A DNA stretch of 64,000 nucleotides from Candidatus Hadarchaeota archaeon (GCA_964452145.1 CAYVLA010000006.1:16409-80408); one strand, 5' to 3'. Positions 23,654-55,526 are shown, counted from the first letter of the stretch. The notes: generated from the sequence alone by a model not told the origin. Numbers and translations are program-made.

Positions 23654-26449
23654 ATGAACGCGGAATACGATGTTGTGGTGGTGGGCGGCGGACTTGCCGG
23701 GGTGGCCTGCGCCCTCGCTTTGGCCCATCGCGGGAAGCAGATCCTATTGGTGGAAAGACGTCCTGCACTCGGCTGGGAGAGCACATGGGCCGGGCAATTG
23801 GACTACGGCGGTATCCGCTCGCCCCTGACTAGGCAGATCCTCCAAGAGGTCGAACGCGTCGGTGGGATGAACGGAAACGTGGTGGACGGTCCCATACTGG
23901 AACTGGTCCTAGATCGACTTGTTCGAAGCGCCGGGATCTCCGTGCTGCTCTATTCCCTTCCCGTCCGCCTTGTGTTCGAGGAGGAGGTTGCACTCGGGGT
24001 GGTCGTCGCCAGCAGGAGCGGGGAACAATTTGTGCGGGGCAGGGCCATCGTCGATGCCACGGAGGAGGCACTCCTCTGGAAGCAGACCGAGCTCATCGCC
24101 GAGGAACTTGGACCGGTTCCTGGGCGACACAGCTTCTACATGAACCACGCCGAAAGGGATCTGGCCCTTCCCCTCGACATGGGAAATGGCATGTACATCC
24201 GGCCCTCAATTTGGGGCGGGGAGGTCCGCGTGGACTATGTCCTAACACAGGCCGACCTCGCGACCGCGCGCAGCGCGTTGCCCGATGCGATACGTCGAGC
24301 ACGTCGGCTAGCTCAGCTCAAGGACGCCCTGGTTTCCCACGTTTCGAATGAGACATTCCCGCTGTCTCCTTCCGTCCGATTCGAGCAAGGCGGCATCGTC
24401 CACCCCGGATTCTGCAATCTGTATGGCTGCGGCATCTGGGCAGCTGAGGCGGAAAACGATCCTGTCGGGCGGCTGCGACTAGGGGAACGTGTGGCGGCAG
24501 CGGTGGAAACCTGCGACCTGCCCACACGCTCCGCCAAGGCGCTGGTTGCCGGATCCGTATCCTCACCTCCTGAGACCAGGACCCATATTCTGGTGGTGGG
24601 GGGTGGAACAGCCGGTGCGATCGCGGCGATCGCAGCTGCTCGAAGCGGCGTCAGTACCACGCTGATCGAGGAGACGACCTCTCTGGGAGGCATCGGCACG
24701 ATGGGTGCGATCCACTACTACTACCATGGGCTCACCGGCGGGATACAGGATGAGGTAGATGCCCGCACATCCCGGATCACCCCGCTGTTCTGCGGCAGGT
24801 GGAATGTGAGCGGCTTTCACCCGGAGGCCAAGAAACAGGTCCTACACGAGATGGCCCAGGAGGCGGGCGTAGAGGTTCGCTACAACACGATCGTGACTGG
24901 CGTGCGGCTCCAAAGCGGCGAGGTGCGGAGACCAGCCCAACCCGGCAAGGAGGTGGTCGTTAGGGACGGCCAAGAACGCCAGAAGTTGCTGGGGGTGCTT
25001 GCGGCCTCACCAAGCGGAGTTGTCGTATACGAGGCTGAGGCCTTCATCGACTGTACAGGTGATGGGGATGTGGCCGCGCTGTCGGGCGCGCCTTTCATTC
25101 TGGGCCGGGAGAAGGACAACATCTGCCACACATACACCCAGGCCGCCGGCAAGCTCGACCCAGAAACCGGAGGCCTGTGTCACCTCAACTTCGATGCGGG
25201 ATATGTTGACCCGACCGATGTCGAGGACATGACCCGGGCCCGCCGGTACGGCCTTCAACTATACTGGCAGGAACCATTCACGAAGGACACCCGGCTTCTC
25301 TACATCGCACCCATGCTCGGGGTCCGCCAGGGTCGGCAGATCATCGGCGAATACCAGCTGACCCTCGCCGACGAAATCGCGGGAAGGCGCTTCGAGGATG
25401 CAGTGTCCTTCATGCAGGCCCACTACGACAACCATGGCTACGACTACGAGAACGAAAGCGACGAGGCCGCCCTCTGGGTTTGGGTTCTTGGCAACTGGAG
25501 GAAGCCCATCGGGTGCGAGGTCCCCTACCGCTGTCTGCTTCCCAGCAACGTTGACGGATTGCTGCTTGCCAGCCGGGCGCTTTCGATGACCTATGACGCC
25601 CACCACGCCTTTCGGATGCAGAGGGACCTCCAACGCGTCGGCGAGGTGGCTGCTCTGGCCGCGGTTCAAGCGGTTAGAGACGGCGTGGAACCAAGGCAGG
25701 TCGACGTGAGGAAGCTACAGTCCGTGCTCAGGGAAAGGGGAATCCTGGATGACCGGTATCGGCCAAAGCCCGCGATATCCGAGCACCAGGTCCAGCAACT
25801 CCCCGGCGACAGCTCTATCGATACCGATCGGGCCGGAGGACTGGCCTGGCTGGCGGTTCGCGGTGGACAGGCCGGTCTTCCCGGGCTGAAGGATGCCTTG
25901 GCATCGCCCGATCCCACGGTGCGCTTCAAGGCGGCCGCGGCGCTTGCACGTCTTGGTCAAGAGCAAGGGTTGTCGGCGCTTCTGAGATGTGTAGAAGAGC
26001 GAGCGGCCGAGGTGCCCGAGGGTATGCGGACCGTCCCTGTGTGGCAAGCAGCGATTCCGTTTCTGGGCATCCCTGGGCATCGCGAGGCGGTCCCGGCGCT
26101 GGTGGAGGTCCTGCGCGATCCCCAGGCTCCCATCGATGCGTTGGTTGCATCGGTGCGCTCGCTGGGAAGAATTGGCGAACCGGGGGCGTTGAAGGCCCTG
26201 CGACGGCTCCTGCATCGTCAGGATCTACCCGCCGAGCGAACCCTTCGTGCGCCGCCTGGCGTGAAGCCTGCGGTGGAGGATGCGCGATGGCAACTTGTCG
26301 TCGCGGCGGCCGAGGCGATGGGAAGGCTCGGCGCTACAGCCAATGAAGTGAGGCATATCCTGCAACACTACCTGGTGGATGAGAGAGCCTACGTTCGCCG
26401 CTATGCTGCTCGCATTCTTCGGGAAGCCGGCATACCCCCCACTCCGTAG
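23654..26449 (+). CDS. FAD-dependent oxidoreductase with duplicated FAD domain and C-terminal HEAT repeats
   Basis: Two Rossmann motifs (VVVVGGGLAG, ILVVGGGTAG), IDCTGDGD and EVPYRCLLP motifs, and HEAT-like repeats (DPTVRFKAAAALARLG, ASVRSLGRIG). Confidence 0.85.
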   Translation: MNAEYDVVVVGGGLAGVACALALAHRGKQILLVERRPALGWESTWAGQLDYGGIRSPLTRQILQEVERVGGMNGNVVDGPILELVLDRLVRSAGISVLLYSLPVRLVFEEEVALGVVVASRSGEQFVRGRAIVDATEEALLWKQTELIAEELGPVPGRHSFYMNHAERDLALPLDMGNGMYIRPSIWGGEVRVDYVLTQADLATARSALPDAIRRARRLAQLKDALVSHVSNETFPLSPSVRFEQGGIVHPGFCNLYGCGIWAAEAENDPVGRLRLGERVAAAVETCDLPTRSAKALVAGSVSSPPETRTHILVVGGGTAGAIAAIAAARSGVSTTLIEETTSLGGIGTMGAIHYYYHGLTGGIQDEVDARTSRITPLFCGRWNVSGFHPEAKKQVLHEMAQEAGVEVRYNTIVTGVRLQSGEVRRPAQPGKEVVVRDGQERQKLLGVLAASPSGVVVYEAEAFIDCTGDGDVAALSGAPFILGREKDNICHTYTQAAGKLDPETGGLCHLNFDAGYVDPTDVEDMTRARRYGLQLYWQEPFTKDTRLLYIAPMLGVRQGRQIIGEYQLTLADEIAGRRFEDAVSFMQAHYDNHGYDYENESDEAALWVWVLGNWRKPIGCEVPYRCLLPSNVDGLLLASRALSMTYDAHHAFRMQRDLQRVGEVAALAAVQAVRDGVEPRQVDVRKLQSVLRERGILDDRYRPKPAISEHQVQQLPGDSSIDTDRAGGLAWLAVRGGQAGLPGLKDALASPDPTVRFKAAAALARLGQEQGLSALLRCVEERAAEVPEGMRTVPVWQAAIPFLGIPGHREAVPALVEVLRDPQAPIDALVASVRSLGRIGEPGALKALRRLLHRQDLPAERTLRAPPGVKPAVEDARWQLVVAAAEAMGRLGATANEVRHILQHYLVDERAYVRRYAARILREAGIPPTP

Positions 26450-30771: not shown

Positions 30772-32079
30772 TCAGTGCTTGGTGTTGGCTGCAGCTTCAA
30801 GCCGGTCGAATATCCTCCACAGCAATAGCATAGCCCGGGGAACATGGAAGCAGCCCTTCCACTTCCCTCCCTTCAGCGGGATCAGGACGTTGCCCGCCCG
30901 GTCAAGATAGCCCCACCACTCGCCGTACTCAGGATCGGGGAAATGGCTCCACGCATACTCATGCACCCTGCAATACCATTCCCAACACTTCCTGTCTTGG
31001 GTCACCTCGTAGGCAAGGGCCAGGCCCACCAACGCCTCCAGATGGACCCACCACAGCTTCTGGGACCATTCCAGCTGGAGCGGAGGCTTCCCCATGGAGT
31101 CCAGATAGTAGAAGATCCCCCCGCACTTCCGGTCCCAGCCGAACTCAAGCTGCCCGAGCATCGCGTTCATCGCCGGCCGAACGCAGTCCTCCCTCCCCAG
31201 GCGTCGGGCAACATCCATGATGAACCACATGGCCTCTATGCCGTGGCCGGGCAGTATGCATCGACCCTCGAAGGTGTCGGGATGGCCTCCATCGGGGAAG
31301 ACGTTCTCGTAGATCAGGCCCCGCTGTGGATCAACAAGACGACCCATGACCAGGTTGAGGTTATCCACGGCAACCTGCTCAAGCATGGGGTCCTCCAGAT
31401 GGGATGAAAGCTCCAAAGATAGATTGATCGTTATCATCGGCAGGGCAAGAGAAATCAGGGGGCGCGTCCCGGGGTAGACCTTGGAGTAGATGCCCTTCGG
31501 ATTGTCCTTGCGCCTCTGGATGTTCCTGTAGGTCGCCAATGCCATCTCCTTTGCCCAGTCCTCCCCGGTGGCTTTGAAGTACTCGGAGAAGGCCATTGAC
31601 GCGAAGCAGTCCGAGAAGATGTTGTAAGGCTGCACCAGCGGCCTGCCCTCTCGATTCAGGGCGAAGTAGTAGTTGCCGCCTTCGTCGGATCCGTGGCGTC
31701 GAAGGAATTCGGCACCGAGGGAAGCGATCTCGAGCCACTCGGACTTGGCCTGCACCTCGTTGTAGAGCTTTGAATAGGTCCAGACCTGCCTTGCCTGCAG
31801 CCAGACGAACTTGTCGGTGTCGTAGACCCTTCCCTGTCGATCAAGGCATGTGAAGTAGCCACCGTGCTCTCGGTCGAGGGAATGGTCGCTCCAGAAGGGA
31901 ACGATATCATCCAACAACGTGTGCCTGTAGAGCGGGCCGAGCTCCGACGCATCGGGAATGTGTACACCACCTGGTCCCCAGAATTCGGTGGACGGTGAGA
32001 GTCTGCCGGGCTGGTTATAAGTGTGCGGGCGGCCTCCCAGAATGGCCCCTGATTCCTGTGGGGTGAGCGTCGAACCCAT
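30772..32079 (-). CDS. AGE family epimerase (N-acyl-D-glucosamine 2-epimerase-like)
   Basis: LLDDIVPFW, DKFVWLQARQVW, PGHGIEAMWF, KLWWVHLE and KGCFHVPR motifs. Start uncertain. Confidence 0.92.
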   Translation of the reverse strand: MGSTLTPQESGAILGGRPHTYNQPGRLSPSTEFWGPGGVHIPDASELGPLYRHTLLDDIVPFWSDHSLDREHGGYFTCLDRQGRVYDTDKFVWLQARQVWTYSKLYNEVQAKSEWLEIASLGAEFLRRHGSDEGGNYYFALNREGRPLVQPYNIFSDCFASMAFSEYFKATGEDWAKEMALATYRNIQRRKDNPKGIYSKVYPGTRPLISLALPMITINLSLELSSHLEDPMLEQVAVDNLNLVMGRLVDPQRGLIYENVFPDGGHPDTFEGRCILPGHGIEAMWFIMDVARRLGREDCVRPAMNAMLGQLEFGWDRKCGGIFYYLDSMGKPPLQLEWSQKLWWVHLEALVGLALAYEVTQDRKCWEWYCRVHEYAWSHFPDPEYGEWWGYLDRAGNVLIPLKGGKWKGCFHVPRAMLLLWRIFDRLEAAANTKH

Positions 32080-32108
32080 CTTGCCGCGCTCTTCTTCCGA
32101 TGGCTTCG

Positions 32109-32330
32109 CTAGATCGGCAGATCGCAGCCTTCTCTGACGTCCTTGAACAACTCCCCCGATATGATGATCTGCCTCTTGGTTTCGCGCGATATCTGATCGG
32201 ATTTGAGCCTGAAGTCCCGGGAGATGCGCACGGGCGAGCATCTCTGCTTGATCTCGATTATGCAACGACCGTCCTCTAGCAGGATCTCCCTCGAGCAACC
32301 TGCGTCAAGACATAACCTGACCCTGGTCAT
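32109..32330 (-). CDS. Small hypothetical protein (73 aa)
   Basis: Has its own TATA-like element (TATATTTAAA) about 30-40 nt upstream of the ATG and does not overlap larger genes. Confidence 0.5.
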   Translation of the reverse strand: MTRVRLCLDAGCSREILLEDGRCIIEIKQRCSPVRISRDFRLKSDQISRETKRQIIISGELFKDVREGCDLPI

Positions 32331-32361
32331 GGCCGACTCTTGGCGTCTGCGCGTTCGACCC

Positions 32362-32373
32362 TTTTAAATATAT
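32362..32373 (-). promoter_or_regulatory. Candidate archaeal TATA box
   Basis: ATATATTTAAAA upstream of the ORF starting at 32330. Confidence 0.45.
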
Positions 32374-32434
32374 CGGCACAAAGCTAACCTTGAATCGGCG
32401 AAAAGTGTACCCAAACTGCCGTGAAGCCTCCAGA

Positions 32435-32842
32435 TCAGGGCAGGCCCCAAGCGATCGTTCTGGAAGGCCTGATCACCAGCATCTGGGCATCGTCCTCCTT
32501 GATCGGCCAGGTCCGTTCCCACTTCGGATACTTGCCGTACACAAGCTCCCTGCCCTTCCTAAACAGGGGGCCTTTTGTCTCAAACCACGCCTCGCCGAAT
32601 ACGATGACCCCGCGATTCTTCTCCCAGCTCAGATACTCATCGACGATGAACGCGACCTTCCTGTTCCTCTGGATGTTGCGTCCCTTCTTGGTCTCCAGAT
32701 CCGTGTTGATGTATATCAGATCCTCATCGTTTGCGTAGCACAGGGCTGCGACATGCGGGACTCCCTCCGGAGTCGCGGTGGCGAGTCTCCCCACGGGCTG
32801 CCCTTCCAAGTATTCGCGCTCCACGGCTGAAAAACTCGGCAT
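32435..32842 (-). CDS. Pyridoxamine 5'-phosphate oxidase-like (split beta-barrel, FMN/F420-binding) protein
   Basis: VGRLATATPEGVPHV, KKGRNIQRNRKVAFIVD and GVIVFGEA motifs. Confidence 0.88.
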   Translation of the reverse strand: MPSFSAVEREYLEGQPVGRLATATPEGVPHVAALCYANDEDLIYINTDLETKKGRNIQRNRKVAFIVDEYLSWEKNRGVIVFGEAWFETKGPLFRKGRELVYGKYPKWERTWPIKEDDAQMLVIRPSRTIAWGLP

Positions 32843-32930
32843 CTCTATCTCCGCCTGTTGTTGGGGTTGTCCAAGGTTCTTAAGAATATCCGCTCCGGCA
32901 TGGGAGGCCGGCACGAACACCCGTGAGCCA

Positions 32931-34256
32931 TCAGCGGCCGCTGGAATCCCGAGACACCGCTTCGCTGAGCCGGGTGCTCTCAACCGGCCTGTACAGTCTT
33001 CTTCTGACCATGAGACTCCACACAGTCACGCTGCAGATCAGGACTGTGGAGGAAACGGCGATCCATTCGAAGACGAATATCCACAGAAGGGTCCTTCTCT
33101 TCAGATCCGCAAGATGGTCCTCGATGATGGGATAGGCCTCCATGACCGCGCGGAGGAGTTCGGACGCCAATGCGATATCCCCTGTCAGGTACTTCCGCTC
33201 CGCTTCCGAGACGGCGGGGCCAAGGAGTCTGAGTTCCTCCTCGATCCGGTCCAGCCTAGCTCCCAACTTGTCAACGAATTCCATCGTCGACAGCGTCACC
33301 GACTTCCGCGTACGCACATCGATGAAGAGCTCCCTGGTCCTGTGGGCAAGCTCAAGGTCCTCGGGGGGAAGAATATCTGCAAGGAAGTAGATCTGGTTGT
33401 ATGTCAGGTCGGGCATGTACCTGTAGTTCTGGAATACGTGTTCGGGCGGATTGTGCCAGCCCTGTCCCAGCTGTAGCGTCCTTCCCGATCCATAGGTGCC
33501 TGTGACCAGAACCGGCGTATTCCTGCCCTTCCATATCGCGTGGACCACGCTGCCCGGCCTAGGCCATATGTCGCCGCCGTGGTTGCCCAGTACCTGCATG
33601 GGCTGTTTCTCGATATCGGGTAGGTTGAGTATCGGATCCTTCTTCACCACGGTCCAGTAGGTTCTTCCCATCTGTGATGGCACATCCGTGCCTAGATCGA
33701 CGTCGGCAGGAAACACGTCATAGAATGCAAGGTCCATCCAGATCCCGATCTGATTGCTGCCCGCACCGGCCCCCCAGAACATGAAGCAGATGAGCCCCAC
33801 ACCCAGCCCCTCTTCCTCGAGAGCTCGGTGAATGAAGCCCAGAACATTGCTCGGGATGATGGTGGGAGAGATGTTGTGGATTATCACGGCATCATAGCTC
33901 CCGTTCAGGGCCTGGTATGTCCTGGGCAGGTACAGCCGGGTCATCTTCTGGGCCACGGGGAGATCGATGAAGTAAACGTCGCAGGGCACGACGACCATGG
34001 AGAGCTTCGGCTCCGCCATGATCCACTGGAGCACAAGCTTGTTGGGCGGGAAGGAGGCATCCCCGAGATACAGGATCCTAGCCTTCAACGTGTGTTCATC
34101 GGTGCGCGAGAAGGCGGCGGTCAGACAGATCCAGGCCGGGCAGATGATGAATATGAGGGCAATGGCGGGTCTTGCGATCCGGGAGGCCACGCAGGGACAT
34201 CTGCCGGGAACCATAGATAATGATTTTCCGGATTCGAGCTGACGCAAGGTCCGCAT
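32931..34256 (-). CDS. Membrane-anchored GATase1-like surface protein, paralog 1 of 6
   Basis: Hydrophobic signal (IALIFIICPAWICLTAA), RLYLPRTY motif, helical bundle, and C-terminal LLWIFVFEW...WSLMVRRRLYRPVESTR. Start uncertain. Confidence 0.8.
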   Translation of the reverse strand: MRTLRQLESGKSLSMVPGRCPCVASRIARPAIALIFIICPAWICLTAAFSRTDEHTLKARILYLGDASFPPNKLVLQWIMAEPKLSMVVVPCDVYFIDLPVAQKMTRLYLPRTYQALNGSYDAVIIHNISPTIIPSNVLGFIHRALEEEGLGVGLICFMFWGAGAGSNQIGIWMDLAFYDVFPADVDLGTDVPSQMGRTYWTVVKKDPILNLPDIEKQPMQVLGNHGGDIWPRPGSVVHAIWKGRNTPVLVTGTYGSGRTLQLGQGWHNPPEHVFQNYRYMPDLTYNQIYFLADILPPEDLELAHRTRELFIDVRTRKSVTLSTMEFVDKLGARLDRIEEELRLLGPAVSEAERKYLTGDIALASELLRAVMEAYPIIEDHLADLKRRTLLWIFVFEWIAVSSTVLICSVTVWSLMVRRRLYRPVESTRLSEAVSRDSSGR

Positions 34257-34370
34257 GGCGTCCGGCAGACGTATTACGATACGAGCGACTGTTGTAGCAG
34301 GCAGGGCAGAAGACAATTCGGCGCTTTCCCAGCGTCAGCATTCGTCACCGAAATTCTGGCATTCACGGAT

Positions 34371-35498
34371 CTAGGGCGGCACCGGCCCCTTCGACACTCC
34401 CTGCCCATGCAGGACAAGTGAACGGATCTCCTTCACGCCCATTCCGGTGAGGCCAAGCTTCTCGACGGTTCTCCCTTCGCTCCAGTAGTCGGTGGCGTTC
34501 AGAAGAGACGCAACATGCACAGAAGCGTCTATCGTGGGAGTAGGCACGTTCAGCAGATCGCCCAGCGATGACATGGGAACCAGGCTCATCGGCACATCCT
34601 CAAACACGTAGCGATGGACGAGGCTGGACGGAGCTTTGACTCCTTGGTACCCAGGGGTTGCCTGTATGGCTTCGTAGAGAGATCTCCCGGGGGAATCGTA
34701 TGCAAGGTACAACCACTGCCGGGCCGTGTGCAGGTGGACGCCCAGAGCCTCCCCCAGAGCAACTCGTTCACGATCGAGGGACTCCAAGACCCTGGCGACG
34801 GACCGGGTCACTCCCTCGATGTAGAACTCGAAATCGGTGTGTTCGTCCTCGATTCGACCCGCATTGAGAATAGCGGTCCCGGGGTGGAAGATAGCGCCTA
34901 TGTTGTCCAGGCTTGTCTCCAATACGTTTGTTGCTGCGACAAACTGCGGGAACACCTTCCTGATGACCGCAAGGATCTGCGGGGTCTTGTGAGCCGGTAT
35001 GGCGGCCAGGGGGACCGAGTTCTTGATCCTGAGTATTCTGGCTCTGGCGAAGTCCTCGTGCCTCGAGACGTAGAGCAGGGTCTGCGTCTCGGCAACGATC
35101 ACATCGGCATCAACCTTTCTCTCTTCCCTTAAGACATGCAGGAACTCTACGGCTCCGAAGGTCCTGCCTGGGTTCAGAACGACGATCTGCCCGTCTTTCA
35201 GGTGCGATGCGCACTGTTCTGCCATGAACCTGTGACCCATCGCAGGGACGACGACCATAATGATGTCGGCGTCTTCCACGGCCTCCCCTATGTCGTGGGT
35301 TGCGTTGACTGCTGCCTGCCCTTTCACTGCACCGTCAACTTCGATCGCTCCGCGTGCCCGAATGTAGTCAATCCTTTCCGGACTGCGAGTGTAGACGCTC
35401 ACCGGATGGCCCATGATCGCCAGATGCCCTGCCATCGCCAGGCCTCCGTGACCAGCACCCAGCACAGCGAATTTGGGATTCTTCTCAGTTGCGGACAT
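34371..35498 (-). CDS. NAD(P)-dependent opine (octopine/nopaline-type) dehydrogenase family protein
   Basis: FAVLGAGHGG Rossmann motif, VLNPGRTFG, NIGAIFHP and RYVFEDVP motifs. ATG 35498 chosen. Confidence 0.9.
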   Translation of the reverse strand: MSATEKNPKFAVLGAGHGGLAMAGHLAIMGHPVSVYTRSPERIDYIRARGAIEVDGAVKGQAAVNATHDIGEAVEDADIIMVVVPAMGHRFMAEQCASHLKDGQIVVLNPGRTFGAVEFLHVLREERKVDADVIVAETQTLLYVSRHEDFARARILRIKNSVPLAAIPAHKTPQILAVIRKVFPQFVAATNVLETSLDNIGAIFHPGTAILNAGRIEDEHTDFEFYIEGVTRSVARVLESLDRERVALGEALGVHLHTARQWLYLAYDSPGRSLYEAIQATPGYQGVKAPSSLVHRYVFEDVPMSLVPMSSLGDLLNVPTPTIDASVHVASLLNATDYWSEGRTVEKLGLTGMGVKEIRSLVLHGQGVSKGPVPP

Positions 35499-35736
35499 AA
35501 CACGAGCCTGCAAGGTGCATATCTCCTTCCGGGCTAATATACATTCCCGGCCGGTGATCGGTGCCATGCTGTGCAACAGAATGGGCCATCGGACAGCGCG
35601 GTTAGGACTCAGACACTGCCGAGCAGATCTACTCACCCTATCATCGACGGCACCACGGACACACGTGGTGAGCCCGAGCTCAGCCGAATGACCCATTTGA
35701 CCGGAATCCGCGCGGATTGCCCCGCTCTCATTCCGC

Positions 35737-37398
35737 CTAGGAGATATCGCGCTGGACCCTTCTGATCCTTTCCCTTTCAGGCATTTTGTGAGCCGTCTTA
35801 GGGTCAACCGCGTAGCATGCTCCATCGATCATCCGTGTCTGGATCGAGCCCTTCGCATACTCGTTGCCCTTCAGATGCGGAGCGTCGAGGAGCCCCGTCT
35901 CAACCGCCCTCTTCAGAGTTGCGGGATCTGTCCACGGATCCTTCACATCCTCGTCGGCCAGACTCCTTATGGCCTCCAACAGAGTCCCCGCCTCTGCGAG
36001 CAGTTCCTCCTTCCGGGCCTGAACCCGAGGATCCAGCGTCACGTCGGGTAGTCCGCGTATGCAGTTGCTGATCACCCGTCTTGCGATCTTGCAGCTCTCC
36101 ACCACATCTTCGGGTGTTGCCGCGTGGTCGGCTTCGCAGTAGCCAACTACGTGGACTATCTCGGGTCCCAAGGCCATCTGCTGCATCACGGAGGATGCAA
36201 GGTGGCCCTTTGCCTCCGACATGTCTGATGGGTAGCTGAGCAGCCCCGTTCTGGTCTGCGTATGGATTGTGAAATCATCGTCAACCAAGCTCTGCGTTAT
36301 GTCCTTCTTGGCCAATTGCTTGGCCAAGTCCATCAAGAAGGACTCTCCAGGAGGCAGGTTGAACATGCGAGTTCCCACATAGTGCCGAACTCCCATCCTC
36401 TTGGCGTTGTATGCGCTTAGGAACTCGACCGCGACGGCGATCGTGTCAGAAGAAGACCGTAGCTCCCAGTGATGGGGCTCATTCAACTCCACCGGGATGT
36501 CCCTCTCGCCATGCCATCTCATCAGTTCTTGATGAACCCTGATGGCCTCCTCAAGCGCCAGCGGGCCTCGCTTGTCCAGCCTGCTGAACCAGAAGAGAGG
36601 TATGGCAGCGAAGCAGTTCCGGATGGTTTCGACCAGCATCTCAGCCATCTCGAACAGATCGCTGGTGCCTTGGTAGCATCTCAGCAAGGGATGATTGCCG
36701 CACCGGGTCGCACTGTATAGCTCGACGAAATCGTCGCGCGTTCTGAGAGGCACGCCTCCGGCGCCCTTCCTTTGCGGGTCCTGTCTATCGGGATGGAAGA
36801 GGTTCTCCTGTGCGTCCTGATCCGGTGCAATGGATATGATGTCGACCGTCTTGGACTCCGCGATCCTCCGGATTCCTCGGAAGGTCTCTTCAAGCGACGG
36901 GAGTCCGAAATGATGCCGGATTACCGGGTAAGGCCTCTTCCACTCAATCCTGTCGACCAAGGTACTCGGGTACGATTCCGAAGCGGGGCCTGCCCGCTCC
37001 TGGGTTCTCAGATAGGATATGACGTCATCCACGGGTTCGGTTCCGTCGAAGACTGCCTCGAAGATGCCCATATCCCTGGCAACCTTGGCTACAGGAGGGG
37101 TCCCGCCGAAGGCATATTTCCTTTCAAGCAGACCAGCCTCTCTGAGCGCGTTCTTCAGGGACGCCAAATGGTAGCTGCCCGATTCCGGGCTCAGCCTGTA
37201 GCTGACGCCGACTATGTAGGGGTCTGCCTCGCGGATTGCGCCCACGAGTTCCCTGGGAGACAGCGCGGCACCCAGGAAAGAGGTCCGGTACCCATACTGC
37301 TCCGCGAGGTTCAGGAAGTTGAAGATTCCGGCCACATGAATGTCCTCGCCTATGGCACCAGCAACAATGATTCGTCTAGGCTTCCGCCGGGCACTCAA
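35737..37398 (-). CDS. Single-chain cobalamin-dependent mutase-like enzyme (N-terminal B12-binding Rossmann domain + TIM barrel)
   Basis: EDIHVAG (DxHxxG), VSYRL and FGGT B12-domain motifs, followed by a catalytic-type barrel (PVIRHHFG, KGAGGVP, HHWELR, HIVHVV-like EIVHVVGYCEA). TTG start with AGGTGG RBS. Confidence 0.85.
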   Translation of the reverse strand: MSARRKPRRIIVAGAIGEDIHVAGIFNFLNLAEQYGYRTSFLGAALSPRELVGAIREADPYIVGVSYRLSPESGSYHLASLKNALREAGLLERKYAFGGTPPVAKVARDMGIFEAVFDGTEPVDDVISYLRTQERAGPASESYPSTLVDRIEWKRPYPVIRHHFGLPSLEETFRGIRRIAESKTVDIISIAPDQDAQENLFHPDRQDPQRKGAGGVPLRTRDDFVELYSATRCGNHPLLRCYQGTSDLFEMAEMLVETIRNCFAAIPLFWFSRLDKRGPLALEEAIRVHQELMRWHGERDIPVELNEPHHWELRSSSDTIAVAVEFLSAYNAKRMGVRHYVGTRMFNLPPGESFLMDLAKQLAKKDITQSLVDDDFTIHTQTRTGLLSYPSDMSEAKGHLASSVMQQMALGPEIVHVVGYCEADHAATPEDVVESCKIARRVISNCIRGLPDVTLDPRVQARKEELLAEAGTLLEAIRSLADEDVKDPWTDPATLKRAVETGLLDAPHLKGNEYAKGSIQTRMIDGACYAVDPKTAHKMPERERIRRVQRDIS

Positions 37399-37438
37399 GG
37401 TTCCACCTTGCTCTGATGATATTCCTCATATGGGTCCT

Positions 37439-38830
37439 TCACAGTTCACGTAAATACTTTTTCATCATCCTCAACGAAGAATCAGGAGCAGCGAAAGAGA
37501 GCAGACCCATTGCCCACATGATGTACTCCTCGTCCACAAACAGCCTGGGCCGTTTCGGTTTGAGCAACAGCGGGTTGTCGCCGCGAGAGCAGGCCTCCTC
37601 CAATATTCTACGCGGATTCCAGCTGTGAACTATCGGGCCTCCAGTGCCGATCACACTTCCGATGTTGCTCAGGTCTTTGCCCTCCTGTATCAGGAACGAT
37701 CCGGAGGGGCTGAACATCTCCCGCAGTTTCCCAACATGCCTTGTCACGGCAACATCGACAGCGACCCGTGCCAGGGCCTGGTCGATCTGGTAATCCTCCC
37801 TTGTTCGGGGAACCCGTCCCACGTTGAGAGAAAGCTCGGCTATTCTGTCTTTGAGTTCGTCCTCGCTGATTCCGAGACCAGTCATTTCCAGGATCTTGCT
37901 GGCACCGCACACCTTCAGAAGGGAATCCACGCTGACGCGCAACCCCATATCCCCCTCAACCGTTCTCTTGGCATAGGGCTCGGGGAGGCCTCTAAGGATC
38001 GTTCTGGAATGGGTTGGGTTTCCTTCGGATACGGAGTGGATATTCGTGGTCGCTCCCCCAACCTCGACCACCATCAGGTCTCCCAAGCCGGATTCCGCTT
38101 CAGTGCCATCTGCGAGCAACTCAGAGGCCTTCAACGTAGCCGATGGTGTGGGCAGAAGGATGTGAACGAGGTCCTCCACCTGGCTCAGTCCCTTGGCGCG
38201 GACTATCCGCTCCAAGAATACTTCCCGGATCATCTCCCTTGCCGGCTCTATGTTCAACTCCCCAAGCTCGGGCATCACGTTCTCCGTCTCCCTCACCTCT
38301 TTTCCACTCGATCGTAGAACGCCCGCCACATCATCCCTCGCCTCCTTGTTTCCGGCCACAATTACCGGCACTTGAAGCGTAGAGCCCGCAAGAACCCGGG
38401 CATTGTGCAGGATCACCTTCGTATCGCCCCCATCGATGCCCCCGGAAAGCAGTACGATGTCCGGCTCCAAGTCCTCTATCTCCCGCAGTTCACGGATCGT
38501 CAACCCGTAGGAAAAGGCAGCCAAGACCTTTGCTCCGGCACCTAAGGACGCCCTCCTTGCAGCCTCTGCAGTGAGCTCGGGAACGAGCCCGACGGCTATC
38601 ACCTTCAAGCCCCCCTTGGCGCTGCTGCAGGCGAGTTTGTGGTCGAAGCCATACGAGCTCAGCTCCGAGAACTGAGGGATCTGATCGAGGCTTTTTCTAA
38701 GGCCGTCCATTATGTCCGTGGTCGCTGTCGTCACTGCTTTCGATTCTGCAACTATCGTCTCCCTCTCCGGGTTCGCAATCACGACCTTGGTGAACGTGCT
38801 GCCGAGATCGATCAACAAGGCCAGACTCAA
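37439..38830 (-). CDS. glmL: GlmL/MutL-type ATP-dependent mutase reactivating factor (ASKHA fold)
   Basis: LLIDLGSTFTK, ACSSAKGGL, VEVGGATT, RTVEGDMG and VIGTGG motifs. GGAGGTG RBS before TTG. Confidence 0.88.
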   Translation of the reverse strand: MSLALLIDLGSTFTKVVIANPERETIVAESKAVTTATTDIMDGLRKSLDQIPQFSELSSYGFDHKLACSSAKGGLKVIAVGLVPELTAEAARRASLGAGAKVLAAFSYGLTIRELREIEDLEPDIVLLSGGIDGGDTKVILHNARVLAGSTLQVPVIVAGNKEARDDVAGVLRSSGKEVRETENVMPELGELNIEPAREMIREVFLERIVRAKGLSQVEDLVHILLPTPSATLKASELLADGTEAESGLGDLMVVEVGGATTNIHSVSEGNPTHSRTILRGLPEPYAKRTVEGDMGLRVSVDSLLKVCGASKILEMTGLGISEDELKDRIAELSLNVGRVPRTREDYQIDQALARVAVDVAVTRHVGKLREMFSPSGSFLIQEGKDLSNIGSVIGTGGPIVHSWNPRRILEEACSRGDNPLLLKPKRPRLFVDEEYIMWAMGLLSFAAPDSSLRMMKKYLREL

Positions 38831-38925
38831 AGACTTGACACCTCCTCAGCCAGTTCGGATACCCTCGAGAGATGGGGGCTCTTGGCGAACTCCTCGCTTC
38901 TGCGCTTGACTTCCTGCAACGACAA

Positions 38926-38933
38926 CGTTTATA
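38926..38933. promoter_or_regulatory. Candidate TATA box in the glmL/cobO intergenic region
   Basis: Reads TATAAA on the minus strand and TTTATA on the plus strand; direction ambiguous. Confidence 0.3.
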
Positions 38934-39351
38934 CGGATTTCCCTAGGACCTAGGAATATGGGACCCAGGCGCACCGGATTCGGGAAAGGCTCACATGACT
39001 TGATGGTACATGGGGCCCTCGAGCTGATCCTCGTCCCTCAATCCTAGGTCTGGACGTCCTTTTTGGACCTTGCCGCCCCACTTCAGCCTTCTTCGTTCTC
39101 CCTTAGAATGGCCGCCCTTGCGAAGGCGATGGCTGGCTGTCAACGCTGTTAAGGATCATTCGCTCTCGCAGGCGTTCAAGGAGATCACGGGTGCGATGCC
39201 GCGTCCACGGCGCGGAGGGACTCTCCGGAAATGACACGCGAACTCGCACGCCACGCAGAAAGGGCCGGCAGGCCTTCTCCCGAAGTGGCCCCTTGCTTGG
39301 AGAAGCCAAGTAGGGAATCGGTTTATCTTCTGCAACGCGGTATATGTCCAC

Positions 39352-39882
39352 ATGCCCACGCAGAGGCTGGAGAGAGGCTTGGTCCAGGTGTACACTGGTG
39401 ACGGAAAGGGTAAGACCACAGCCGCCTTCGGTTTGGCGCTGCGAGCCATAGGACATGGTATGAGGGTATACATGGTGCAATTCCTGAAGAGGCAGGACTC
39501 CGGGGAGGTGGTCGCAGCAAAAAGGCTCTTTCCCGACCTGCAGATAGCCCAGTATGGCCGACCGGGCCCCATGGATGGAATCTTCTTCGAGGATCATCGA
39601 TTGGCCAAGGAAGCCCTGCAGCGTGCAAGAGAAGTTGTATGCAGCGGGGATTACGACGTAGTCATATTGGATGAGGTTAACGTCGCACTGCACTTCCGAT
39701 TGCTCAAATCATCCGACGTACTGGAGCTGATCTCCCAGAGGCCTGACAACGTCGAACTCGTGCTCACCGGTCGGCACGCCCCCGACGAACTGATCTCGGC
39801 CGCCCAACTGGTGACGGAGTTCGTGGAAGTAAAACATCCTCACTCACGGGACATGCAAGCACGAAGAGGCATAGACTACTGA
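39352..39882 (+). CDS. cobO: Cob(I)yrinic acid a,c-diamide / cob(I)alamin adenosyltransferase
   Basis: GLVQVYTGDGKGKTTAAFG, VQFLK, VILDEVN, ELVLTGR and ARRGIDY motifs. Confidence 0.95.
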   Translation: MPTQRLERGLVQVYTGDGKGKTTAAFGLALRAIGHGMRVYMVQFLKRQDSGEVVAAKRLFPDLQIAQYGRPGPMDGIFFEDHRLAKEALQRAREVVCSGDYDVVILDEVNVALHFRLLKSSDVLELISQRPDNVELVLTGRHAPDELISAAQLVTEFVEVKHPHSRDMQARRGIDY

Positions 39883-40188
39883 TGCTCCGGTGCCAACGCA
39901 GTGATGATTTCTGGAACAATTATCAGAATCATGTCATTCGAGAAATCCGTCCATCAAGGTAACTGCATACCTCACTCTCCTCACTGCTGACCAGCAACAG
40001 AACAGGAGAGCCATCTTCCAGCAACACCCCACGCCCAATCTGGCCTGGGACATCATCGCCCCAAGTCGATGAAGAGTTGTCCTAGGCCTTTGGCCGATCT
40101 CGGGTAGGGCAGACGGCTGGTGGGCTGGTCTGTTAACTATATTAGACGGGTGCCGCATCTCTCAAGCCGGGGCGGAGGAACGACAGAC

Positions 40189-41388
40189 ATGCGTCACAGG
40201 AAACATGCCCACACCCGCGTCTCCCTGACAATCGCTCTCCTGACGATGCCAGGACTCCTTCCGGTCTGCTTGGGAGCCGAGATCCCGAGGGTATACTACA
40301 TCGGGGACTGCAAGCCCACCACGAGCCCGATAAACATCGTGAGCGATGATCCGGCTCTCCACGTCGTTGCGGTGCCGGCGGTGATCGGCACGGTCTGGTG
40401 GACCTCCAAGGAGGTGGCACGCGCCCTGAGACTGTATATGCCTAGGAACTACGAGGAACTGGTCGAGACCAGGGTGCTGATCCTCCTCAGCGATGTCAAG
40501 GCCGAGAACCTGCCCGGCTTCCACATCGACTGGTTCTCGAAGGCGGTTAGACAGGACGGCATGTCGCTCATGATGTTCGGCGGGATATCCTCCTTCGGCG
40601 GGCATGCCGGATTCCCCTCAGCATGGGGCCAGACGAGCGTGGGGGAGATCCTCCCCGTTTCCCTCATCCTTGAGGCAACCGGGCCGGGCCCGTGGACGCC
40701 GGTGGTGACTTCTCCGGACGACCCGCTCATGCTCGCGTTTCCGTGGGATTCTTGTCCGCCCTTCTACGGGTACAACAGGGTGACCCGGAAGGAGGGAGCC
40801 AAGCTGCTTGCCCAGACCAGCAACACGGCGGAACCCTTCATGATCGTATGGGATGTTGGGCCCGGGCGGAGCTTCGCCTTCTGCACCGACTGGACGCCGG
40901 ACTGGGGTAAATCCTTCCAGCTCTGGGACCCATACATCGACTTCTGCGTCTACTCGATATACTACACGATGGGCAGGATGATACCGCGGGATATCGAGCT
41001 GGTCCACGTAGTCAGGTCCGAGATGCTCGAGAACCGGGTGAGAACGCAGGTGCTGATCTCGCTGTTGGCACTAGTCGATCAGATGGGCGGCAACGTCCTT
41101 CCGTTGGAGGAGAAGATGAGGGAAGCAGCACTCGTCCGTCGTCAGGCAGACAGCCAATACGTCCTCCAAGAATACGGTTCGGCCCTGACAACGGTCAAGC
41201 AAGCCAACTCCGACCTTGCGGCGATCGAGGGTGAGGCCGTCAGGGTCAAGGCAAGAGCCATGCTGTGGGTATGGATCGTGGAGTGGCTTGTGGTGACATC
41301 GACCCTCATGATCACCGGCGTGGCTGTCTGGAGCCTGATGGTGAGAAGAAAGCTGTATCGCGAAGTAGTGACGACGAGAAGCCCATGA
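40189..41388 (+). CDS. Membrane-anchored GATase1-like surface protein, paralog 2 of 6
   Basis: Signal peptide, RLYMPRNY, GMSLMMFGGISSFGG...W...EILPV (DUF1355-like), and C-terminal AMLWVWIVEW...WSLMVRRKLYREVVTTR. GGAGG RBS. Confidence 0.85.
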   Translation: MRHRKHAHTRVSLTIALLTMPGLLPVCLGAEIPRVYYIGDCKPTTSPINIVSDDPALHVVAVPAVIGTVWWTSKEVARALRLYMPRNYEELVETRVLILLSDVKAENLPGFHIDWFSKAVRQDGMSLMMFGGISSFGGHAGFPSAWGQTSVGEILPVSLILEATGPGPWTPVVTSPDDPLMLAFPWDSCPPFYGYNRVTRKEGAKLLAQTSNTAEPFMIVWDVGPGRSFAFCTDWTPDWGKSFQLWDPYIDFCVYSIYYTMGRMIPRDIELVHVVRSEMLENRVRTQVLISLLALVDQMGGNVLPLEEKMREAALVRRQADSQYVLQEYGSALTTVKQANSDLAAIEGEAVRVKARAMLWVWIVEWLVVTSTLMITGVAVWSLMVRRKLYREVVTTRSP

Positions 41389-45066: not shown

Positions 45067-46398
45067 TTAGAGTTGTCTTGTCACCCCCGTCTCCCTGTAC
45101 AGCCGCCGTCCAACCATCAGGGTCCACGTCGCAACGGCCACCAATCCGAACGTGCCCGTGACGGCACACCACTCCACCGCGTAGACCCAGAACAGGGCTC
45201 TTCCCTTCAAAGCGACCGCCTTCTTCTCGATCGTGTAGATCAGGTCAAAGGCCTCCCGGAGACGGGTCTGACATGACTCGAAGTCCTGAGAGAGATAGTC
45301 CCTTCCCGCCCGATCCACGAGGGAGTCGGCCCCCGCGACCTGTTGCTGCAGGCTCTGGCTGCTTGCGCCGAACTTCTCTACGAAATCCAACAAAGAGTAC
45401 AGAACCCCAACCCTGAGGACGTAGTCCCTGAACCCGCTCCTAAGCCTTTGGACAAGCAGTGGGTCCGATGGCAGCTCCCTTCGGAGCGAATACCAGACTA
45501 TGTTGGTGAAGATGCCCAGCGCGTATCTCTCCTGGCCGTCCCCTCCCCACCAGTATCCCCACATGGGACTCACGAACTGGTCCCCCGTTGCCCAGATCCT
45601 GGAGTTCCTGTCCCCAAATTCCCAAGACAGCAACAACGGGCAACTGGTCTTGCCCAGCTTGAAGGGTATGTCTTTTGCTCTGGCCCATTCCGTGGCGCCT
45701 TCCTTGGCGAAAAGTAGGCGGGTATAACCAAAGGGCTTGACCTTCTCGATTCCAAGGGCCTTGTAGGGCCTGATCACGGGGGCAAGCGATCGGTCGTCCA
45801 CGATCTCGAGGTTGTAGGCTTCTATGTTATCGTGCGAAAGGGAGATGAACCTCTCCTGATCGTGCGGGAAGGCCTTTGACAGGTCCGAGCTCATCCACGG
45901 GACATACATCTCGGGGTACGCGCTCTGAGTAAAGCCGAGGGCACCGACCCCCCGCTCCTTCAAGGCTCGATACATCCACTGGATCTGAATATCATCATGG
46001 TAGTCCAGGAACGGCTGATCGTAGACGAAGAAGTCGTAGACCAGAAGGGCCTCGTACGACCGGGGCATGTATATGCGGATGAACCTGCGAAGCTGCTCAA
46101 TGCTGTAGAGGCCGGCGTGGATGGACCGGGAGACGACCAGCGTCCCCTCCAAGGACGGCTCGGCCCTGAAGAAGTCTGATAAGGGGCTGTAGCTGGGGTC
46201 GACCTGCCCCATGGCGAGCACCTTGATGACGTCCTGACACCATGCTCCAAAAGGAACGATCAGGACCACAAGGACGACGGCAGAAGCCCCTATGCCGAAG
46301 CCCATGCTCATGAAACAGAGGGCTTCCCTTAAATATCGCGAGGCAGCACATCTCTGCACAAGGCCTAGCAAGGGCGAGCCCGTCTGAACGGCCTGCAT
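45067..46398 (-). CDS. Membrane-anchored GATase1-like surface protein, paralog 3 of 6
   Basis: RIYMPRSY, LDFVEKFGA and C-terminal ALFWVYAVEW...WTLMVGRRLYRETGVTR. ATG 46398 lies immediately after the AbrB-like stop. Confidence 0.82.
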   Translation of the reverse strand: MQAVQTGSPLLGLVQRCAASRYLREALCFMSMGFGIGASAVVLVVLIVPFGAWCQDVIKVLAMGQVDPSYSPLSDFFRAEPSLEGTLVVSRSIHAGLYSIEQLRRFIRIYMPRSYEALLVYDFFVYDQPFLDYHDDIQIQWMYRALKERGVGALGFTQSAYPEMYVPWMSSDLSKAFPHDQERFISLSHDNIEAYNLEIVDDRSLAPVIRPYKALGIEKVKPFGYTRLLFAKEGATEWARAKDIPFKLGKTSCPLLLSWEFGDRNSRIWATGDQFVSPMWGYWWGGDGQERYALGIFTNIVWYSLRRELPSDPLLVQRLRSGFRDYVLRVGVLYSLLDFVEKFGASSQSLQQQVAGADSLVDRAGRDYLSQDFESCQTRLREAFDLIYTIEKKAVALKGRALFWVYAVEWCAVTGTFGLVAVATWTLMVGRRLYRETGVTRQL

Positions 46399-46399
46399 T

Positions 46400-46624
46400 T
46401 TACCAGCTTCTGGTGTCGCCGGTTTCTGTGACTCGGCCTCCTCTTCTTTCTTCATCCGTTGCCTGGTACGGTATGACCTTGAGATAGCCGCTTCTTTTCA
46501 CAACGTAAAGCTGCCGCGTCGGGCCAACTTCGGCCTGCCGCCAGTCAGGGGGTAACAGCAGACGCCCCCCCCGGGAATCCATCATCTTCTTCACTTCGAC
46601 ACCATATGACACGATCATCACCAT
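46400..46624 (-). CDS. AbrB/MazE/SpoVT-type DNA-binding protein
   Basis: EVKKMMDSRGGRLLLPPDWR...LYVVKRSGYLKVIP matches the swapped-hairpin D..GR..LP..WR pattern. Confidence 0.65.
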   Translation of the reverse strand: MVMIVSYGVEVKKMMDSRGGRLLLPPDWRQAEVGPTRQLYVVKRSGYLKVIPYQATDEERRGGRVTETGDTRSW

Positions 46625-46803
46625 TTTGGACCTTACTCTCTGGGGGGATTTGACTCGTACTCCCAGACAATCATGCCCGCCATCGTATTTGAACAGCCCC
46701 TCCAGACATTTCTCAGTCTAAAGGAGGCGGGCTCCCGCCAACACCGAAGACCTATTTGAAGACCTTCAATCTCCCTACCACAGCCATCTGAGAGAGATCC
46801 AAG

Positions 46804-47820
46804 ATGCACAGCAAGGAACGGGTCATCCGAGCCATAGAGTTCGACGGACCCGATAGGATGCCCCACATGCATTCCTACAGGTATGCCACCCTCAGAAGAC
46901 ACGGGGTCGACTTCGCTGCGATCCTTGCCCGATATCCATCCGACTACTCACAGGCCACGCCCTCCCGGGACACCCTCGAGGGATCCGACAGAGGCTCTAC
47001 CACGGACGAGTGGGGGATCACCTGGGTCAAGCTAAACGATGGATACATGGGGCAGCCCAAGGGCCACCCGCTGGAGAACTGGGACAACTTCGAGGACTAC
47101 CGCATCCCGGACCCAGACCCATCCAAGTCCGTGTTCTTGAGGCACCACAGGGGTGATGCCGGGGGTATTGCGTCAGAGGACAAGTACGTCTGCATGTACG
47201 GTGGCAACCTTTTCGAGAGGCTGCAGTGGCTCCGAGGGATGAGAAACGTCTTCGTCGATCTGCACACCAAGAACGCAAGGCTTCTCGAGCTTGCGGACGC
47301 CGTAGTGGACTATGACATAGCCCTATCGAAGATATGGTGTGAGCGCGGCGCGGACGGTATCGTTTTCTCAGACGACTGGGGCACCCAGGATGCGCTGATG
47401 GTCAGCCCGTCCCTCTGGAGACGAATCTTCAGGCCTCGCTACCGCAAGATGTTTTCCGCAGTCCGCAGGCTGGGAGCGAAGGTGCATTTCCACAGCGACG
47501 GATTCATCCTGAATATCGTCTCGGATCTCATCGATCTGGGCGTAGACGTCCTTAACCCCCAGCTGAACGTCCATAACATGGACGAGCTGGAACGCATCTG
47601 TGGCGGAAGGATCTGCATAAGGGGCGGGCTGGACAGGCAGACCGTCCTACCCTACGGATCGCCGGCGCAAGTCCGCAGACACGTGCTCGAAGCGATCCAA
47701 CACTTCGCGGTCTACGACGGGGGATGGATTGCCTGCGGAGAGCTTGGACCCGATGTTCCCCTGGCCAACTGCGAGGCCATGATGAAGAGCTTCTTCGAAC
47801 TAGGGAAGTACCGTCCATGA
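46804..47820 (+). CDS. Uroporphyrinogen decarboxylase / MT2-like TIM-barrel protein
   Basis: DEWGITW, LFERLQWLRG, DDWGTQDALMVSP, HFHSDG and LDRQ..LP.G motifs. Confidence 0.88.
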   Translation: MHSKERVIRAIEFDGPDRMPHMHSYRYATLRRHGVDFAAILARYPSDYSQATPSRDTLEGSDRGSTTDEWGITWVKLNDGYMGQPKGHPLENWDNFEDYRIPDPDPSKSVFLRHHRGDAGGIASEDKYVCMYGGNLFERLQWLRGMRNVFVDLHTKNARLLELADAVVDYDIALSKIWCERGADGIVFSDDWGTQDALMVSPSLWRRIFRPRYRKMFSAVRRLGAKVHFHSDGFILNIVSDLIDLGVDVLNPQLNVHNMDELERICGGRICIRGGLDRQTVLPYGSPAQVRRHVLEAIQHFAVYDGGWIACGELGPDVPLANCEAMMKSFFELGKYRP

Positions 47821-55519: not shown

Positions 55520-55526
55520 ATCACCA

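Follow-up and report, generated by a model that had tools for sequence, protein, structure and literature searches.

A putative single-chain adenosylcobalamin-dependent isomerase paired with an opine dehydrogenase in archaea and bacteria

A 64,000-nt stretch of Candidatus Hadarchaeota DNA (GCA_964452145.1 CAYVLA010000006.1:16409-80408; hereafter the window) contains, at positions 34371 to 39882, four genes encoding a GlmL-type ATPase, a 553-aa B12 protein (which we call the mutase), an opine dehydrogenase (ODH) and a cobalamin adenosyltransferase. We infer that the mutase is a single-chain adenosylcobalamin (AdoCbl)-dependent radical isomerase, a distant relative of glutamate mutase that represents a previously undescribed family. 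Comparison across genomes indicates that the conserved unit is the mutase plus the ODH, with GlmL optional and the adenosyltransferase rare, and that the copy in the window is a typical family member carrying the full accessory set. What is new is an apparent AdoCbl isomerase family with a new type of partner; the fold and the accessories are as in glutamate mutase.

Gene layout and conservation of the pair

Genes in the window were called by listing open reading frames (ORFs) and by Pfam and NCBIfam scans, and the cluster comprises the following features, given with the evidence for each:

34371-35513, minus strand: ODH, CENDH-type, predicted to be NADP(H)-dependent (start inferred from the ribosome-binding site; Pfam Octopine_DH, match to 1BG6)
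35737-37398, minus strand: B12 protein (mutase), 553 aa (B12-binding and weak Met_asp_mut_E)
36994-37398, minus strand: N-terminal cobalamin-binding Rossmann domain of the mutase, residues 1-135 (Pfam B12-binding, fingerprint motif, Foldseek match to GlmS)
35737-36936, minus strand: C-terminal TIM-barrel substrate domain of the mutase, residues ~155-553 plus stop codon (weak Met_asp_mut_E, AlphaFold, Foldseek, hhalign)
37439-38830, minus strand: glmL, GlmL/MutL-family ASKHA ATPase, putative mutase chaperone or reactivase (Pfam MutL, NCBIfam accessory_GlmL)
38831-39351, no strand: 521-bp divergent intergenic region between glmL and cobO (presumed promoters of both units, from orientation only)
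39352-39882, plus strand: cobO/cobA-type ATP:cob(I)alamin adenosyltransferase, divergent from glmL (Pfam CobA_CobO_BtuR, P-loop)

The mutase gene starts 40 nt downstream of glmL. A sequence-only reading of this DNA had placed glmL, the B12 enzyme and the ODH in series on the minus strand with cobO divergent, and all four genes lie in that order and orientation at the positions it gave; the layout is best explained as a glmL-mutase-ODH operon and a divergently transcribed cobO. That reading had also noted that no small mutase subunit, 3-methylaspartase or racemase gene adjoins the cluster, and we detected none (the racemase being judged by Pfam and NCBIfam matches among the flanking ORFs); tblastn found no separate gene for GlmS, GlmE or methylaspartate ammonia-lyase in the window. 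No Rfam family, cobalamin riboswitch included, was matched anywhere in the window, and a scan of positions 32000-40200 for promoter and terminator consensus sequences gave counts not above those of shuffled controls, with no convincing site in the glmL/cobO spacer.

The sequence-only reading had proposed a genome-neighbourhood comparison, and this comparison bears out the association of mutase and ODH. One genome per species was taken, giving 80 loci, to which six loci of close relatives were added; counts for the pair are given over 87 loci. The ODH gene adjoins the mutase gene on the same strand, in either gene order, in 77 of the 87, an arrangement that is not due to chance, and among the ten exceptions there are six in which the contig runs out within 2.3 kb. 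The gap between the two genes is typically -4, -1 or fewer than 50 nt, and they thus look translationally coupled. The pair spans at least 10 phyla of bacteria and archaea, its bacterial carriers belonging to Chloroflexota, Bacillota (Caldanaerobacter subterraneus, Tepidanaerobacter and Thermaerobacter among them), Bipolaricaulota, Poribacteria, Sumerlaeota, Armatimonadota, Cloacimonadota and Fraserbacteria, and its archaeal carriers being Bathyarchaeia and metagenome-assembled genomes of one member each of Methanomicrobia and Asgard archaea. A separate look-up identified Anoxybacter fermentans as a cultured carrier. Methylaspartate ammonia-lyase, GlmS and GlmE were absent from all 82 genome-scan loci in which they were sought.

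A search of a protein collection clustered at 90% identity returned more than 7000 mutase homologues, the best 120 of which are 54-69% identical to the window protein and nearly all unnamed or labelled generically or misleadingly ("cobalamin-dependent protein", "methionine synthase", "methylmalonyl-CoA mutase cobalamin-binding subunit"); bacterial and archaeal members are typically 51-69% identical to it. An exhaustive search of 1.84 billion representatives gave 169 clusters (50% identity) at E <= 1e-30. In 72,556 plasmid records, tblastn found no match to the mutase, and the ODH homologues it found, mostly from rhizobia, do not exceed 35% identity and lack a B12 neighbour. A divergent subfamily of ~620 aa (P0169, P0180 and P0228) has no Pfam match.

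GlmL is encoded in or beside the mutase-ODH operon in 12 of the 87 loci (in Bathyarchaeia, Bacillota, Anaerolineae, Sumerlaeota and others), and three proteins of 826-1266 aa (P0150, P0151 and P0154) are fusions of the mutase with GlmL/MutL. In two further proteins the mutase is fused to a GshB/RimK-type ATP-grasp domain (P0130, 863 aa) or carries a weak Peptidase_M15_3-like tail (P0133, 732 aa). The "self-contained" four-gene module of the sequence-only reading is accordingly complete here, but the full set is lineage-specific and only the mutase and the ODH form the conserved unit.

Sequence and structural features of the encoded proteins

The N-terminal part of the mutase matches Pfam B12-binding at residues 11-123 with 30.6 bits, just below the gathering score of 32.1. 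It contains the segment G-E-D-I-H-V-A-G (DxHxxG), followed by S66..L69 and G98-G99, and so presents the DxHxxG...SxL...GG fingerprint of AdoCbl isomerases that bind their cofactor in the His-on, base-off mode. His21 is unchanged in all 79 family sequences compared, and Foldseek, run on an AlphaFold model, aligned the domain with GlmS (1i9c_A) at a TM-score of 0.76. A Pfam scan found no B12-binding_2 helical cap domain in the mutase. By its sequence, the domain is of the His-on, base-off type and the counterpart of the separate GlmS subunit, fused ahead of an E-like barrel. The B12 domain and the barrel thus reside in one 553-aa protein with no separate small subunit encoded next to it, in agreement with the single chain that had been proposed.

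The barrel is more remote from known families. Met_asp_mut_E is matched weakly at residues 244-547 (25.4 bits; gathering score 26.6), the NCBIfam model of methylaspartate mutase S scores 21.8 against a cut-off of 110, no GlmE model was matched, and OraE scores 17.7 against a cut-off of 800. Searches of PDB sequences with the protein and with a family profile reached the B12 domain alone, and the kinship of the barrel therefore required comparison of structures. The AlphaFold model, built on 20 homologues, has a mean pLDDT of 89, and the top 50 Foldseek matches in the PDB were inspected. The best are GlmE chains 6h9e_B and 1cb7_B (E 3e-16, TM-score 0.65 on the target), with ~15% identity to GlmE, followed by lysine 5,6-aminomutase, ornithine 4,5-aminomutase, methylmalonyl-CoA mutase, 2-hydroxyisobutyryl-CoA mutase and IcmF. 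Isolated B12-domain chains are also among the 50, and those matches that cover the barrel are AdoCbl isomerases, save ThiC and cis-epoxysuccinate hydrolase (5zmu_C, rank 47); no methyltransferase barrel (MtaB, MttB or MetH) is among them.

For a comparison of residues, GlmE sequences from four canonical glmS-glmL-glmE-mal operons were aligned and set against the mutase family by profile-profile alignment in hhalign, with conservation taken from 79 family members. The alignment covers 339 columns (E 2e-4) at a probability of only 44%, and the following equivalences are therefore provisional:

GlmE E330 (adenosyl ribose contact): aligned with E422, invariant
GlmE E171: aligned with D275, invariant, a conservative change
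GlmE G-T-x-D motif after strand 3: kept in the family
GlmE R100: aligned with Q197, invariant
GlmE R149: aligned with Y242, invariant
GlmE K326: aligned with V418, invariant

A conserved Glu touches the adenosyl ribose in known enzymes of this kind (E330 in GlmE, E338 in ornithine aminomutase). R100 and R149 of the glutamate-binding arginine claw (R66/R100/R149) are not kept, and R66 falls in the low-confidence N-terminal end of the alignment. The family has an invariant polar set of its own in the barrel (R161, H163, R240, Y242, D275, R277, E304, N306, R314, R383, H416 and E422), suggesting a small, multiply charged substrate that is bound otherwise than glutamate.

The ODH matches Pfam Octopine_DH (PF02317) with 166 bits against a cut-off of 30. 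As listed, its ORF runs from 34371 to 35825, and its first ~105 codons are an over-extension into the end of the mutase gene that matches nothing. The start is most likely the in-frame TTG at 35513, 9 nt after GGAAGGAG, or the ATG at 35498, five codons later and just ahead of the dinucleotide-binding motif GAGHGG; either would give a predicted product of about 375-380 aa. Over its whole length the protein can be aligned with CENDH, the N-(1-D-carboxyethyl)-L-norvaline dehydrogenase of Arthrobacter (1BG6, E 1.5e-84). The positions of CENDH His202 and Arg292 are unchanged in 63 of 63 ODH orthologues, and that of Asp297 is Asp in 61 and Glu in two. With the full-length match and intact catalytic residues, the ODH has the appearance of a functional C-N oxidoreductase of the opine type rather than of a degenerate partner. 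After strand beta2, where CENDH has Asp, the family has N-R-T and the window protein T-R-S, which by the usual rule for Rossmann folds predicts NADP(H) and not NAD(H). On this sequence evidence the ODH looks catalytically competent and NADP(H)-dependent, and it differs from CENDH (from Arthrobacter sp. 1C) both in this predicted preference and in its genetic coupling to a B12 enzyme.

GlmL/MutL-type ATPases accompany AdoCbl mutases, and CobO makes AdoCbl. The window GlmL scores 540 bits with Pfam MutL, 590 with NCBIfam accessory_GlmL (NF040745, cut-off 475) and 426 with TIGR01319 (cut-off 204), and it also matches NCBIfam ornith_Or-4 (365 bits). Its identity is 44% to GlmL from a canonical glmS-glmL-glmE operon and 46-57% to GlmLs linked to the mutase-ODH module elsewhere; module-linked GlmLs are 46-78% identical among themselves, versus 33-48% to canonical GlmL. 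The window GlmL has three Cys only and no Fe-S activase signature. CobO scores 202 bits with Pfam CobA_CobO_BtuR (PF02572, cut-off 25.7) and has the P-loop GDGKGKTT; with the NCBIfam equivalog TIGR00708 it scores 162.8, just under the cut-off of 167.75. An adenosyltransferase adjoins the module only in the window (CobO type) and in locus L089 (PduO type, after the ODH gene), whose mutase is 69% identical to that of the window. CobO and PduO are non-homologous, have the same function and occupy the same position, which is good indirect evidence that the cofactor is AdoCbl. Attachment of an adenosyltransferase to a GlmL-type mutase operon has a precedent in Peptoclostridium acidaminophilum, where the canonical glmS-glmL-glmE-mal operon ends with a gene for cob(I)yrinic acid a,c-diamide adenosyltransferase (L084, 9163-9678).

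Possible reaction of the pair and competing explanations

We consider it probable that an AdoCbl mutase and an NADP(H)-dependent ODH act on one metabolite, with GlmL and CobO as accessories. CobO would supply AdoCbl, and GlmL would reload or repair the mutase cofactor as an ATP-dependent chaperone or reactivase. The mutase would homolyse the Co-C bond, abstract hydrogen and perform a 1,2-rearrangement on a small, strongly polar amino- or imino-dicarboxylate, and not on free glutamate in the manner of GlmE. That compound would be an N-(1-carboxyalkyl) amino acid or the corresponding imine, whose C-N bond the ODH would form or break with NADP(H), so that the two enzymes would make up one two-step unit. 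The ODH may precede the mutase or follow it, or it may do both, first attaching an N-carboxyalkyl handle and later taking it off. We infer a rearrangement of an amino acid or opine as the chemistry. The NADPH signature, together with the recurrence of asparagine synthase and ATP-grasp ligase genes as neighbours (see below), tips the balance slightly towards a biosynthetic role.

Several observations weigh against this reading. Four well-flanked loci have no ODH gene within at least 3 kb of the mutase gene. In the window, an untranslated stretch of ~223 nt (35514-35736) separates the two genes in place of the overlap or near-abutment seen in most relatives, and this gap has no terminator-like site and no Rfam match. 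There is no GlmL nearby in 75 of the 87 loci, and an adenosyltransferase is nearby in only two. The Asp of DxHxxG is replaced by Cys (CxHxxG) in 70 of 79 members and kept in eight, the window protein included; a Cys at the Asp position of the His-Asp relay is uncommon among B12 mutases. Both Pfam matches of the mutase fall below their gathering scores, and the alignment with GlmE has low probability. In locus L094, one of the four without an ODH gene nearby, genes of the uroporphyrinogen decarboxylase (URO-D) family, which includes corrinoid methyltransferases, lie on both sides of the mutase gene. Finally, the cofactor form, the substrate and the product are read from sequence and predicted structure.

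The pairing of an AdoCbl mutase with a subsequent NAD(P)-dependent C-N oxidoreductase resembles OraS/OraE with 2,4-diaminopentanoate dehydrogenase and KamD/KamE with 3,5-diaminohexanoate dehydrogenase, and the ornithine 4,5- and lysine 5,6-aminomutases also have GlmL-related accessory proteins and provide the second-best structural matches. These two aminomutases hold pyridoxal phosphate (PLP) as an internal aldimine on a Lys of the B12 Rossmann domain. In 79 family sequences no Lys is conserved in that domain, the only Lys residues kept at 90% or more being K154 and K360, both outside residues 1-135, which argues against a PLP-dependent aminomutase of this type; the dehydrogenase, too, is of another family. 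A PLP aminomutase was rejected on the missing Lys and the OraE score. By analogy only, the system also recalls pyrrolysine biosynthesis (PylB/PylC/PylD), in which a glutamate-mutase-type skeleton rearrangement by PylB is combined with ATP-grasp ligation and a dehydrogenase acting on an amine, a combination that loci with Ddl-like genes or the ATP-grasp fusion would parallel. PylB is, however, a radical-SAM enzyme and PylD a dehydrogenase of another family, there is no homology, and most loci, the window among them, lack the ATP-grasp gene.

A more specific version of the two-enzyme model, which we offer tentatively and consider unlikely, is that an NADPH-dependent ODH installs and then removes an N-(1-carboxyalkyl) or imine handle that takes the part of PLP, while the mutase carries out a 1,2-shift (of an amino group or of the carbon skeleton) unlike that of any known enzyme. 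The product would be a common metabolite or osmoprotectant in anaerobic bacteria and archaea, one example being a beta- or D-amino acid on which the neighbouring AsnB and Ddl-like enzymes would then act, by amidation or ligation. For the pair in general, the hypothetical substrates or products considered were 2-oxobutyrate/isoleucine by way of 3-methylaspartate, beta-alanine, D-alanine or D-aspartate as a supply for Ddl, proline formed through a cyclic imine, and a compatible solute.

The nearest characterized system is glutamate mutase (GlmS/GlmE with GlmL; EC 5.4.99.1) of Clostridium cochlearium and C. tetanomorphum (PDB 1CB7, 1I9C and 6H9E). Conceivably, the protein is simply a fused glutamate mutase interconverting L-glutamate and 3-methylaspartate, with an ODH-family enzyme in place of methylaspartate ammonia-lyase; 3-methylaspartate might be oxidized to 3-methyloxaloacetate and yield 2-oxobutyrate, as in the old "methylaspartate route" to isoleucine or in a variant of glutamate fermentation. 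The His-on Rossmann domain and TIM barrel have their best structural matches, for both halves, in glutamate mutase, Met_asp_mut_E is the sole family matched by the barrel, and GlmL exceeds the equivalog cut-off for the "methylaspartate mutase accessory protein". A Glu provisionally aligned with E330 is kept, D275 (aligned with E171) and the invariant R161, R240 and R277 could bind an amino-dicarboxylate, a cobO-type gene can end the canonical operon too, and genes of the AtuA family and DUF4387 adjoin both the module of L089 and canonical glm operons. We nevertheless judge this explanation improbable. The window enzyme is one chain, with S fused N-terminally to E, and shares only ~15% identity with GlmE; R100, R149 and K326 are, in the provisional alignment, replaced by the invariant Q197, Y242 and V418; most members have CxHxxG and not DxHxxG; no NCBIfam glutamate mutase model comes near its cut-off; and methylaspartase is missing from the window and from the 82 genome-scan loci, the fixed partner being an ODH. 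To our knowledge, known opine dehydrogenases use secondary amines and not primary amino acids. A canonical glutamate mutase was rejected: the curated GlmE and GlmS models were not matched above their cut-offs, two of the three claw arginines are not kept, and there is no operon with methylaspartate ammonia-lyase.

Less probable still is a corrinoid-dependent methyltransferase, in which a corrinoid domain and a substrate-activating barrel would cycle between Co(I) and CH3-Co(III), with GlmL as activase. Many homologues are labelled "methionine synthase", the PDB sequence matches of the B12 domain include corrinoid proteins of methyltransferase systems, and URO-D-family genes occur close by, overlapping the mutase gene in L094 and lying no more than ~5 kb away in L014 and L041, and no more than ~7 kb from cobO in the window. 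The URO-D association, however, extends to at most four of 88 loci, and a methyltransferase was rejected on the fold of the barrel (which in the top 50 matches resembles AdoCbl isomerases and not MtaB, MttB or MetH), the missing helical cap domain and the two types of adenosyltransferase adjoining the module. GlmL, moreover, lacks Fe-S cysteine motifs, and GlmL-family proteins are known, from NCBIfam models, only with AdoCbl amino acid mutases. The preference of the sequence-only reading for a radical mutase over a methyltransferase is thus upheld by the fold matches and the missing cap domain, together with the invariant Glu provisionally aligned with Glu330 of GlmE, the recurrent and sometimes fused GlmL, and PduO in the place of CobO. 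To the extent that sequence analysis can judge it, that reading is supported throughout. Chance juxtaposition of an orphan B12 protein, an unrelated dehydrogenase and a B12-salvage gene could account for the 223-nt gap and the unrelated polysaccharide-degradation genes around the cluster, but merits almost no credence given a pair that is kept in 77 of 87 loci across 10 or more phyla in both orders, usually with overlapping stop and start codons, and a mutase that occurs fused to GlmL and to an ATP-grasp ligase.

The pathway had been called undescribed, and for the mutase or the pair we found no curated NCBIfam or Pfam family above cut-off and no solved structure. Full-text searches of a literature collection in which most subscription journals are not represented yielded no paper on the fused mutase or its pairing with an ODH, nor any account of coupling between an opine dehydrogenase and a B12 enzyme. 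With no named family, structure or paper, the pair probably performs a B12 radical reaction not yet described. The AdoCbl-dependent isomerase reactions of which we are aware number only about a dozen, and additions to them are rare. The family is compact and highly conserved, and it occurs widely in abundant uncultured anaerobes (Anaerolineae, Bathyarchaeia, Bipolaricaulota, Poribacteria and thermophilic Bacillota). Solving its reaction would provide a new B12 radical reaction, a corrected annotation for thousands of genes, a further reason for the cobamide need of these organisms and possibly a missing step in the metabolism of amino acids, osmolytes or cell-wall precursors. The question can be tested directly in cultured carriers, among them Caldanaerobacter subterraneus, Tepidanaerobacter acetatoxydans and Anoxybacter fermentans.

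Recurrent neighbours and surroundings in the window

Pfam families were counted among 121 neighbouring genes transcribed in the same direction and chained within 150 nt:

Asparagine synthase: 13 genes
c-di-AMP receptor: 9 genes
Na+/H+ exchanger: 6 genes
MutL: 5 genes
Ddl-type ATP-grasp: 5 genes
Na+/Ca2+ exchanger: 5 genes
DUF5698/DUF2179: 5 genes
TrkA_C: 5 genes
CitMHS: 4 genes

The asparagine synthases within the operons exceed the AsnB equivalog cut-off and are true AsnB; asnB lies between the mutase and ODH genes in Bipolaricaulota and Fraserbacteria and just after both in Caldanaerobacter, and in L092 AsnB and the ODH are encoded on one strand with GlmL and the mutase divergent. The ATP-grasp genes within the operons are Ddl/VanA-like and score under the Ddl cut-offs. 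An Opp-type ABC transporter and a regulator with an NrpR domain are encoded beside the module in L089, and another relative has genes for a pyruvoyl arginine decarboxylase, glycosyltransferases, a mechanosensitive channel and a Na+/H+ exchanger near it. Taken together, the recurrent neighbours are loosely suggestive of a part in making amino acids or amides and of regulation by osmotic conditions or nitrogen.

In nine Chloroflexota loci, a gene for a PII-like cyclic-di-AMP receptor stands immediately downstream of the ODH gene (for example L068, 12780-13151; L045, 12763-13155; L061, 12807-13157), and genes for Na+/H+ and Na+/Ca2+ exchangers, TrkA_C, CBS and CitMHS proteins are nearby. The receptor and ion-exchanger neighbours suggest that the module is under osmotic or ion-homeostasis control.

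The AtuA-family (DUF1446) gene beside the module in L089 (11044-12833) has counterparts directly after methylaspartate ammonia-lyase in canonical operons of Prevotella (L085, 9714-11374) and Escherichia coli (L087, 8083-9248), and a DUF4387 gene accompanies it in L089 and L085. This recurrence hints at a role in C5-dicarboxylate metabolism.

URO-D-family (uroporphyrinogen decarboxylase/MtaA-like) genes are present in the window at 3701-4963 (minus), 46804-47820 (plus) and ~60385-60813 (minus). In L094, which has no ODH, one such gene shares 4 nt with the end of the mutase gene (59% identical) and a second lies upstream (6552-7610, 10650-11663). These genes could be an alternative partner or could reflect chance in URO-D-rich genomes.

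In the window, two PF07090 GATase1_like paralogues (32931-34316, minus, and 40120-41388, plus; 25% identity, E 4e-37) flank the B12 module symmetrically, the first following closely on the ODH gene and the second lying after cobO; both have a transmembrane helix at the C-terminus. On the strand of the module, 630 nt beyond the first of them, is an N-acylglucosamine 2-epimerase (AGE)-family gene (30772-32298, minus) that scores 592.7 bits against an NCBIfam equivalog cut-off of 600 and has an N-terminal extension of ~120 aa in the listed ORF. The AGE epimerase, the two GATase1-like proteins, an MBL-fold protein and an M28 peptidase were rejected as parts of the module, as none recurs in 87 other loci.

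Genes for polysaccharides and sulfated glycans are dense in the window at positions 1-30000 and 46000-64000, a content that, taken alone, would suggest a polysaccharide-degrading bacterium as host. The features recorded outside the module include:

5136-7124: FGE-sulfatase/BNR protein
9003-10361: arylsulfotransferase-like gene
11789-14254: GH116
14334-16319: GHL6
19488-20834 and 61753-63129: sulfatases
23492-26449: FAD-oxidoreductase and HEAT-repeat protein, 985 aa
50890-52101: oligogalacturonate-lyase-like gene

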